Part shown: positions 53,327 to 53,767 of the stretch, piece by piece
How the letters are laid out: every line of letters starts with the position of its first letter
Numbering within the stretch: the stretch's first letter is position 1
Origin: Escherichia coli
GTDB lineage: Bacteria > Pseudomonadota > Gammaproteobacteria > Enterobacterales > Enterobacteriaceae
NCBI RefSeq assembly: GCF_030013595.1
Contig: NZ_CP122768.1
Strand: one strand, 5' to 3'
DNA length: 64,000 nt
The notes under the pieces: generated by a model
Told to the model about the DNA's origin: nothing
The model's database searches: none
What the model saw: only the letters and a program-made list of their open reading frames with translations
Position numbers and translations under genes: made by a program

Positions 53327-53767
53327 ATGAGCAAGAAGAAGTTTTCTGTTGAGAATGAAGATCTCGCTACTGTTCGTACATCACTTCTTAATTCCAACCT
53401 TGTCCGGAAGTTGATCATGGAAATGTCTGATGAAGACTTCAATCAAGTTAAGGATAACCTTGAAAAGGCCATTGAGCAGCGTAATGAGTTGAAGGATTCT
53501 TTGGCAATTATCAAAAAGTACATGGATGACGCAGGTGTAACGGCGGAAGATGTGTATCGTGAATTTGGCAAAAAATTACAGACGGGCAGAAAAAACGATT
53601 CAGGAGAGTCTAATAAGTACAGGTATGAGTATAACGGTCAAATAATGTACTGGAGTGGACAAGGTCGTCGGCCTTCTGTTATTGCAGAAGCAATAAAAGC
53701 CGGAGGTTCTCTTGATGATTTTCTTATATCTCAGGGCACATCATCATCTTGTTCTGATTATGAGTGA
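53327..53767 (+). CDS. H-NS family nucleoid-associated protein paralog (xenogeneic silencer type)
   Basis: 146 aa; C-terminal DNA-binding motif YWSGQGRRPSVIAEAIKAGGSLDDFLI matching the H-NS TWTGQGRTP motif; coiled-coil-like N-terminal half. Confidence 0.75.
   Translation: MSKKKFSVENEDLATVRTSLLNSNLVRKLIMEMSDEDFNQVKDNLEKAIEQRNELKDSLAIIKKYMDDAGVTAEDVYREFGKKLQTGRKNDSGESNKYRYEYNGQIMYWSGQGRRPSVIAEAIKAGGSLDDFLISQGTSSSCSDYE

Follow-up and report, generated by a model that had tools for sequence, protein, structure and literature searches.

Considered here is a 'window' of Escherichia coli DNA, 64,000 nucleotides in total (contig NZ_CP122768.1, assembly GCF_030013595.1), and particularly a gene located at 53327..53767 within that window. 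This gene almost certainly encodes an intact, two-domain protein of the H-NS family, one which represents a separate, island-borne clade. An island-encoded H-NS paralog with debris of insertion sequences (ISs) to either side is what the first-pass annotation of this DNA had proposed, and both parts of that description are borne out. That is, the C-terminal domain (CTD) of the protein is recognised by Pfam (Histone_HNS, PF00816; E 3.3e-11, residues 97-134), the gene resides within an island of approximately 42 kb between selC and setC, and four IS fragments surround it (two of IS256, one IS3-family, and one IS21 istA). The allele found in the window is here called type A, with a second allele, type B, found in other E. 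coli. The gene and the parts of its product are these:

53327..53767, including the stop codon, + strand: coding sequence (CDS) of the 146-amino acid (aa) H-NS-family paralog, type A allele, WP_000038137.1 (list of open reading frames, or ORFs; Pfam PF00816; RefSeq).
53348..53566, + strand: N-terminal oligomerisation domain, residues 8-80, equivalents of H-NS alpha1-alpha4 (predicted local distance difference test, or pLDDT, of 88-97 in an AlphaFold2, or AF2, model; hhalign).
53567..53617, + strand: flexible linker, residues 81-97, GKKLQTGRKNDSGESNK (AF2 pLDDT ~60, without secondary structure).
53618..53728, + strand: C-terminal DNA-binding domain, residues 98-134 (Pfam, Foldseek, PDB alignments).
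53729..53764, + strand: C-terminal tail, Ser-rich, acidic and clade-conserved, SQGTSSSCSDYE (predicted disordered, AF2 pLDDT 55-71).

The ORF is intact, starting with ATG and running to 146 aa on the + strand, and the 116-aa version annotated in some genomes reflects a different choice of start, with the ORF of strain SM107, for example, likewise intact at 146 aa. RefSeq gives the identical protein, WP_000038137.1, the name 'H-NS histone family protein'. Among sequences of the PDB the best matches are to the CTDs of StpA (3.7e-7), H-NS (1.1e-6), and Ler (1.5e-3). The protein nevertheless falls well short of NCBIfam's definitions of StpA (NF007656, 47.5 bits versus a cut-off of 202) and of H-NS (NF008193, 34.4 bits versus a cut-off of 211), and the Pfam match to the N-terminal domain (Histone_HNS_N, PF22470) is weak (E 0.0089). 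The motif YWSGQGRRP, residues 108-116 (encoded by 53648-53674), had been described as 'slightly divergent', which is a fair description of the DNA-binding loop but not of the protein as a whole, which in a MAFFT alignment is only ~27% identical to H-NS and StpA. A literature search on the accession WP_000038137 returned no papers. The protein already is common and generically annotated, with no study of it found in the searchable literature.

As judged from alignments and from the structural model, the protein follows the H-NS plan, i.e., an oligomerisation domain, then a basic linker, and then a winged CTD carrying the QGR loop. The AF2 model, built from an alignment of 92 sequences, has a mean pLDDT of 84.9, with values above 90 over residues 11-80. 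Helices are predicted at 8-21, 23-32, 35-69, and 73-80, followed by disorder over residues 81-97, a beta-hairpin at 98-109, and helices at 117-124 and 129-132, with both ends of the protein disordered. When the full model was compared with the PDB using Foldseek, only the CTD was recovered, superposing on the Salmonella H-NS CTD (2l93) with a root-mean-square deviation (rmsd) of 1.6 A and a probability of 1.00. An N-terminal domain that is all helix escapes recognition in this manner when the model is of a monomer, hence a comparison of profiles using hhalign instead. By that means, residues 1-85 of the clade match 66 N-terminal domains of the family (97.9%, E 3.5e-13), with residues 18-83 aligned to H-NS residues 6-82 across a single gap of 11 residues. 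The loss of the oligomerisation domain, which the first-pass annotation had named as grounds for abandoning its proposal, therefore is not seen; on both the profile match and the four modelled helices, the domain is present. It is predicted to cover the equivalents of both dimerisation site 1 and the dimer-dimer site 2 of H-NS.

The DNA-binding loop retains QGR at residues 112-114, and the substitutions S110 and R115 are within the variation of the family. Indeed, W109, G111, Q112, G113, R114, and P116 of the loop, as well as SLDDFLI towards the C-terminus, are held in common with H-NS and StpA. At its two ends the protein possesses material of its own. An N-terminal extension of ~12 residues (MSKKK-SVENE) is conserved within the clade, and the C-terminal tail has as its type B counterpart SQEVSSGPDYE, ending in DYE. 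Tails of 11 or more residues are uncommon in the sample of the family that was considered.

What most sets the clade apart is a shortening within the helix that corresponds to alpha3 of H-NS:

53483..53488, + strand: junction at codons N53/E54, with 11 residues missing relative to H-NS 42-52 (EEESAAAAEVE), as placed by the hhalign gap.

The spacing from the equivalent of R15 to that of G69 consequently is 42 in the clade, versus a canonical 53 in 48 of 79 sampled members of the family, and in most of the other short sequences the N-terminal site is absent altogether. Whichever placement of the gap is used, alpha3 of the clade (DEDFNQVKDNLEKAIEQRNELKDSLAIIKKYMDDA) possesses neither a run of Glu (EEE) nor a run of Ala. 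In H-NS the buckle of alpha3, as associated with the closed, non-bridging state, is Glu42-Ala49, and with the substitutions E43A/E44A/S45A the protein no longer requires Mg2+ to bridge DNA (van der Valk et al. 2017; PMC5647153).

A further difference concerns Arg12 of H-NS, which contacts Hha and is essential for Hha binding (PMC7544231). Type A has N24 as its equivalent and type B has Asp, versus Arg in 46 of 68 other members of the family. H-NS R93 corresponds to E94 in type A and to a gap or G in type B, with the alignment register at R12 and at R93 identical between MAFFT and hhalign. R15 of H-NS is retained, as R27, and hydrophobic residues (I62 and Y65) are found at the equivalents of H-NS Y61 and M64.

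The gene is intact and under purifying selection. Between types A and B, dS (synonymous divergence) is 0.55 and dN (nonsynonymous divergence) is 0.25, for a dN/dS of 0.46, and the two halves of the gene are similar in this regard. Immediately upstream is found a further conserved feature:

53221..53326, + strand: conserved upstream region, presumed promoter and 5' untranslated region (type A/type B DNA alignment).

These ~105 bp are better conserved between the alleles than is the coding region, with type B homology beginning at 53221, and conservation extends to the ATG and to the initial MSKKK. Within this region an invariant block of 19 nt, AAATCACCTGATAGGATTT (53277-53295), contains an element resembling an extended -10, TGATAGGAT (53283-53291). 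An inverted repeat located between that element and the ATG (TTATCAT-N6-ATGATAA, 53292-53311) was considered as a candidate operator and rejected, as it is not conserved in type B. With thousands of identical copies, the dN/dS just given, and a conserved upstream region, the gene is no chance ORF.

Within E. coli the clade is sporadic. The 1.5 kb surrounding the gene was found in 133 of 5426 complete genomes, and a search using the gene only found a member of the family in 460 of the 5426 (~8.5%), with intact copies in ~6%. Type A (at least 95% identity) accounts for ~143 of these genomes. Type B (~75% nucleotide and 62% protein identity, 144 aa, WP_000038249.1) accounts for ~188, including ABU 83972 and E24377A. 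A 3' remnant only, annotated as a pseudogene in ACN002, is found in ~121 of the 460 carriers. In a larger collection of assemblies the exact type A protein is present in 4769 blocks and type B in 1261. Close copies were seen in just two of 72,556 plasmid records, both of them non-mobilizable, and among 1.84 billion cluster representatives, relatives of full length exceeding ~45% identity are limited to the type B cluster. Two scans of 100,044 species-representative genomes using degenerate patterns returned no member of the clade; the single match, discarded, was to an H-NS of the ordinary kind from Pantoea, with the pattern running through the stop codon. The clade is found under E. coli names only, plus one MULTISPECIES label. 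A protein encoded by a metagenome contig of 578 bp in ENA is type B-like over residues 1 to ~80 and identical to type A over ~81-146, which would reflect either recombination between alleles or an assembly chimera.

The islands carrying the gene are found at selC, at leuX (type B), and at phe tRNAs. Over ten wider contexts, the local block of type A is constant, in the order GTPase, a hypothetical gene (hyp376), Gp2/YfjJ, Mrr-like endonuclease, IS debris, the gene itself, IS, YfjJ-like, a 191-aa protein, AlpA, UCP030791, and ProQ, with distal cargo instead varying (fimbriae, type VI secretion, type I restriction-modification). With type B the order is UCP030791, ProQ/FinO-like, small ORFs, the gene, a 189-aa protein, and an anti-phage dGTPase, forming a block free of ISs in eight of eight contexts. 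The gene thus belongs to the CP4-44-type family of islands, either as an accessory gene or as part of the backbone. The anti-phage dGTPase lies two genes from the H-NS-like gene in type B islands (8522-9754 on the - strand of locus L019 and 10628-11860 on the - strand of locus L005; PADLOC 9.7e-109), with the cargo beyond it variable (CdiB/CdiA, microcin V, Rhs). The leuX island of CFT073 is short, and the H-NS-like gene is not present there.

The clade probably has been encountered previously, as unexplained weak matches within a supplementary table and without discussion. The Islander table of one review lists five weak matches to H-NS (E 2e-4 to 8e-4), found on islands at Phe or Leu tRNAs in E. 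coli (042, 55989, SMS-3-5, and ABU 83972) and in Salmonella Heidelberg SL476 (PMC7074111). As type B is found in the leuX island of ABU 83972, these five rows probably represent the H-NS-like clade. At 50% identity and E 2e-4, the match tabulated for E. coli 042 resembles a short remnant.

Turning to surroundings, the window is collinear with the corresponding locus of strain MEW. From left to right are found ilvBN, uhpABCT, adeD/adeQ, yicN, a RelE/ParE pair, nepI, an insertion of ~18.5 kb, yicS-nlpA-yicL-setC, and then the island, a composite of ~42 kb which has setC at one side and an integrase plus tRNA-Sec (selC), past the end of the window, at the other. Over the whole window (1-64000), Rfam returned no family at its gathering score and ARAGORN no tRNA. 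The backbone of the island is of the CP4-44 type (DUF4942, CbtA/YeeU, JAB protein, antirestriction protein, DUF932, GTPase, Gp2/YfjJ, AlpA, UCP030791, and ProQ/FinO-like), and its cargo includes type I restriction-modification, KwaA, RhuM, MobI, and tia. The first-pass annotation had the whole window rich in AT-rich foreign DNA. This was overstated, as blocks of 34-41% GC, which do fit that description, alternate with stretches of 50-63% GC, which do not. Those features of the island which most closely concern the gene are the following:

51619..52172, + strand: IS256-family transposase fragment, C-terminal part, frameshifted (RefSeq, from a 100%-identical sequence; Pfam Transposase_mut).
52331..53206, - strand: frameshifted pseudogene of an IS3-family transposase; from its end to the downstream H-NS-like ATG is ~120 bp (ORF list, RefSeq).
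53207..53990, approximate: the sole non-IS DNA between the IS fragments, consisting of the gene flanked by ~120 bp (upstream) and ~220 bp (downstream).
54035..54163, + strand: IS256-family transposase fragment, N-terminal part (RefSeq).
54195..54824, - strand: IS21 istA fragment, C-terminally truncated (ORF list, RefSeq).
58492..58836, - strand: island-backbone gene with a ProQ/FinO domain, 113 aa (NCBIfam FinO 1.9e-14 and ProQ 6.5e-13, both matches below the curated cut-offs).

Matches elsewhere to 53165-53206 are to the IS end only, and matches to remnants of the gene (type C) reach 53932. The IS debris is incidental to type A, since type B is located within an IS-free block in every one of its contexts. 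That is, the debris is an accident of type A history, and the gene has retained its own, conserved upstream region through it. The ProQ/FinO-like gene is found in synteny with the H-NS-like gene in all eight type B contexts and in most of those of type A, and these islands therefore pair a homolog of a nucleoid protein with one of an RNA chaperone.

The selC island seems itself to be of more than one origin. A backbone module, consisting of a Gp2/YagK-YfjJ-like gene and those genes following it, occurs twice, at 49628-51565 and at 55978-58473, flanking the IS block, and this suggests that two CP4-44-type islands have been combined, in tandem or by fusion at ISs. Farther along, in strain MEW, is a remnant of a second integrase (37714-37896 of the MEW locus). 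In ten of ten contexts the type A allele has, immediately upstream, a 292-aa, Mrr_cat-like restriction endonuclease (50687-51565, + strand) for which neither PADLOC nor NCBIfam supplied a family match, and PADLOC similarly gave no defence-system match to the H-NS-like protein itself. The gene at 62635-63021 (+ strand) is annotated by RefSeq as conjugative transfer protein MobI(A/C), with no NCBIfam match at E 1e-3; the annotation hints that IncA/C plasmids could mobilise that part of the island. Away from the island, a RelE/ParE toxin with a helix-turn-helix antitoxin is inserted between yicN and nepI (~13850-14510, - strand; MEW annotation), two hypothetical genes form a small AT-rich insertion of 34-35% GC between ilvN and uhpA (~1690-4680, + strand), and adeD (9958-11724, - strand) is an intact ORF of 588 aa in the window and annotated as frameshifted in MEW.

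The insertion of ~18.5 kb (16133-34567), which has the core gene nepI on one side and the core gene yicS on the other, carries the air adhesin along with eilA-eipD-eipC-eipB-eicA. These encode an inverse-autotransporter adhesin of the IatC/Air type (16133-27553), EilA, a tip protein resembling SipD, a hypothetical protein, a translocator resembling SipB, and a chaperone resembling SicA. At 3806 aa, air is an intact ORF in the window, and in MEW it is split into two CDSs. It had been suggested that the H-NS-like protein might modulate these type III secretion system (T3SS) and adhesin genes as its neighbours, a link that comparison between genomes does not support. The two loci are separate insertions with yicS-nlpA-yicL-setC between them, the eip/air genes being 19-37 kb from the H-NS-like gene, strain 2009C-3133 carries an identical island with no eip/air locus, and type A is found elsewhere with other cargo and type B at leuX. 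The arrangement with both loci, as in strain MEW, is seen in 87 genomes. No sequence feature ties the H-NS-like gene to eip/air. An effect in trans is conceivable, as H-NS silences the HilA-like regulator ygeH and ETT2 (T3SS 2 of E. coli), with EilA in turn driving eip/air (PMC4210603). Present evidence nonetheless says nothing specific about regulation of these virulence genes.

What then might the protein be doing? To silencing, with the protein serving as an element-borne H-NS paralog for AT-rich island DNA, we would give about an even chance. As so envisaged, the QGR loop would bind the minor groove of AT-rich DNA, and the protein would polymerise both head-to-head and tail-to-tail via its two H-NS-like interfaces, in the manner of H-NS and StpA as well as of Hfp and Sfh, with transcription repressed as a result. 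Its main role could be as a supplementary 'stealth' or back-up silencer of the AT-rich island DNA with which it travels; the island- and plasmid-borne paralogs Hfp and Sfh are described as acting with, or backing up, H-NS (PMC7074111, PMC7544231). It is retention of the QGR loop together with both interface regions which favours a silencer over an antagonist of the Ler or H-NST type. Certain departures from H-NS behaviour would be anticipated as well. An alpha3 without its Glu/Ala-rich buckle segment should reduce switching by Mg2+ and osmolarity, or abolish it, and an Asn or Asp at the equivalent of Arg12 makes co-regulation by Hha/YdgT improbable. The shorter spacer between interfaces, in addition, may disfavour in-register co-polymers with H-NS, so insulating the one protein from the other.

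Various observations weigh against this reading. Several residues of site 1, through which the protein would associate with itself or with H-NS, differ from those of H-NS (L30 to K42 as well as R12 to N24). The charge of the linker is half that of H-NS (+3 versus +6), a difference which within H-NS would weaken DNA binding. The position of the alpha3 gap is uncertain, as MAFFT places the 11 missing residues 16 residues earlier than does hhalign. A dN/dS of 0.46 indicates a fairly relaxed constraint, and those ~121 carrier genomes holding only a truncated remnant imply that the gene often is dispensable. A scan upstream of the gene for strict sigma-70 consensus found no site, such that promoter function is argued from conservation. 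Nor did the literature searched contain any experiment on the H-NS-like protein.

A stronger version of the silencer reading can be put forward, and only tentatively, since it seems rather unlikely. By this version the protein would be a natural 'buckle-less' and Hha-blind H-NS, locked in the open, DNA-bridging state and silencing regardless of Mg2+, osmolarity, temperature, or Hha. In combination with the ProQ/FinO-like chaperone it would constitute a two-layer regulatory kit, acting on DNA and on RNA, of CP4-44-type islands.

Three other explanations can be set against the silencer. The protein may act instead as an anti-silencer, either forming mixed, out-of-register oligomers with H-NS and StpA or displacing them in a Ler-like manner, and thereby de-repressing AT-rich island genes, possibly including eilA, eip, and air. 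The shortened spacer would alter filament geometry, the weaker charge of the linker suits a poorer silencer, H-NST and Ler are island-borne precedents (PMC7074111), and H-NS silences the related HilA-like regulator ygeH and ETT2 (PMC4210603). The protein, however, is full length and possesses a QGR domain, unlike H-NST, which has no DNA-binding domain, or Ler, which has VGR and an N-terminus that is not H-NS-like. Genetic linkage to eip/air is absent, with the gene occurring without those genes and at other tRNA sites, and the divergence at site 1 (R12, L30) speaks against efficient heterodimers with H-NS as much as it does for them. Antagonism consequently is considered unlikely. A dedicated regulator of its own island, one repressing genes for excision and transfer (AlpA-type excisionase, Gp2/YfjJ) or else defence and toxin cargo, perhaps together with the ProQ/FinO-like chaperone, is likewise doubtful. 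Its model by analogy would be Acr2, an H-NS-like, element-borne and full-length homolog (PMC7074111, Table 1) that represses the activator of IncA/C transfer. The order UCP030791, ProQ/FinO-like, small ORFs, and H-NS-like gene is stable over all eight type B contexts even as cargo varies, and defence genes always adjoin (the anti-phage dGTPase with type B, the Mrr-like endonuclease with type A). Domains of the H-NS family bind with low sequence specificity, however, so that restriction of activity to the island would require some extra feature, and none was identified. In type A, furthermore, IS fragments have replaced the native neighbours and yet the gene is intact in thousands of genomes, and no operator-like repeat common to both alleles was seen upstream of neighbouring genes, though no systematic search for one was made.

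The gene might, lastly, be a decaying passenger, that is, intact through recent descent, useless within its IS-scrambled context, and on its way to becoming a pseudogene. Four IS fragments surround it, remnants are numerous, constraint is relaxed, and the sigma-70 scan found no strong consensus promoter, all of which a passenger would predict. Less readily explained are an ORF whose exact 146-aa sequence recurs over 4769 blocks and ten wider contexts, ~105 bp of upstream DNA conserved between alleles whose coding sequences diverge by 25%, N- and C-terminal extensions which also are conserved between those alleles, and the confidence of the AF2 model. Mere passage is, as a result, very unlikely.

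Returning to the silencer reading, known H-NS-type proteins supply various points of comparison. Relative to H-NS and StpA themselves, the N-terminal domain aligns to H-NS 6-82 and the CTD superposes closely, as noted; the gene differs in being accessory and island-borne rather than core, and in its product's extra ~12 residues at the N-terminus and 12-residue tail at the C-terminus. The longest end-to-end alignment is to HppX of IncX plasmids (WP_001293458.1, encoded beside topB), which spans residues 9-144 at 32% identity. The clade and HppX of IncX3 both have 'ENE' in an extension at the N-terminus, both have YWSG-GR-P, and both end in an acidic tail rich in Ser. HppX nevertheless has a full-length alpha3, an equivalent of R12, RGR rather than QGR, and a plasmid location, and from all of these the clade differs. 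Membership among HppX proteins was rejected on the basis of location on a chromosomal island, retention of QGR where HppX is divergent (Q112-R114), and an identity to the IncX3 protein of just 32%. Even HppX as closest relative must be softened, as in a uniform blastp it scores 56.6 bits versus 53-58 for several unrelated lineages (StpA, 44.7 bits; H-NS, 40.4 bits). Given several lineages with such similar scores, the clade is best described as a deep, isolated branch without a clear sister.

With regard to island-borne H-NS homologs, reviews cover only Hfp/H-NSB, H-NST, and Ler (PMC7074111). Ler, like the clade protein, is an island-encoded member of the H-NS family found near T3SS genes, and the CTDs are related; Ler, however, resembles H-NS only in its CTD (PMC7074111). 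In the alignment against H-NS, StpA, and Ler which the first-pass annotation had recommended, the clade is closer to StpA and H-NS (4.5e-8 and 1.4e-7, respectively) than to Ler (3.4e-4). Identity with Ler was rejected also for the H-NS-like N-terminal domain of the clade, a loop with QGR instead of VGR, and a window having no locus of enterocyte effacement (LEE), Ler being encoded in LEE1. H-NST, consisting of an N-terminal domain only, is excluded by full length and an intact CTD.

The HlpC proteins (Fitzgerald et al. 2020; among them EQX80536.1, EOV48679.1, PBS25339.1, and VEF68253.1) present another parallel, as both are sporadic, chromosomal, low-variation clades of H-NS-like proteins found in some E. 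coli (PMC7544231). In HlpC, R12 and R93 are conserved, I, L, V, T, or F is found at position 21, and only L33 is divergent among dimerisation residues (PMC7544231). The clade at the diagnostic positions possesses N24 (D in type B), E94 (gap or G), M33, and K42 at L30, a comparison of residues which depends on the register of the alignment. HlpC also is often found in Klebsiella oxytoca, Enterobacter, and Citrobacter (PMC7544231), and this is a distribution that the clade does not fit. In CFT073, a strain listed as HlpC-negative (PMC7544231), the leuX island is without the clade's gene too. A literature search for 'HlpC' returned the naming paper only. It is quite probable, then, that the two differ, set apart by HlpC's published description rather than by its sequences.

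Hfp/H-NSB and the clade protein both are full-length H-NS paralogs of tRNA-inserted islands, in E. coli both pathogenic and commensal, and are sporadic and horizontally moved (PMC7544231, PMC7074111). Island homologs of the Hfp type, though, are 60-65% identical to H-NS and retain the Hha signature (PMC7074111), and the Hfp islands are those of serU and of EARL asn-tRNA, versus the CP4-44-type islands of the clade at selC, leuX, or phe tRNAs. Identity of ~27% to H-NS, the missing equivalent of R12, and the type of island together rule out assignment to Hfp/H-NSB. With Sfh/HppH of IncHI plasmids what may be shared is a proposed role, by analogy, of supplying element-borne silencing capacity for incoming AT-rich DNA. 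Sfh, by contrast, is plasmid-borne and nearly identical to H-NS at all functional positions (PMC7544231), whereas the clade protein is chromosomal and strongly divergent.

In the tolerance and regulation of foreign DNA by E. coli, paralogs carried by mobile elements (Sfh, Hfp, Ler, H-NST) have a central part, and this clade represents a convenient natural variant for models of H-NS switching, of filament geometry, and of the insulation of paralogs from one another. Should the 'buckle-less' reading be true, then nature would have supplied a test, ready to hand, of the alpha3-buckle model for environmental sensing by H-NS. The comparison in that case would be with the E43A/E44A/S45A mutant of H-NS, as both are without the Glu-rich buckle segment of alpha3, the difference being that the clade possesses a natural deletion rather than a substitution, and with that a helix which also is three turns shorter.

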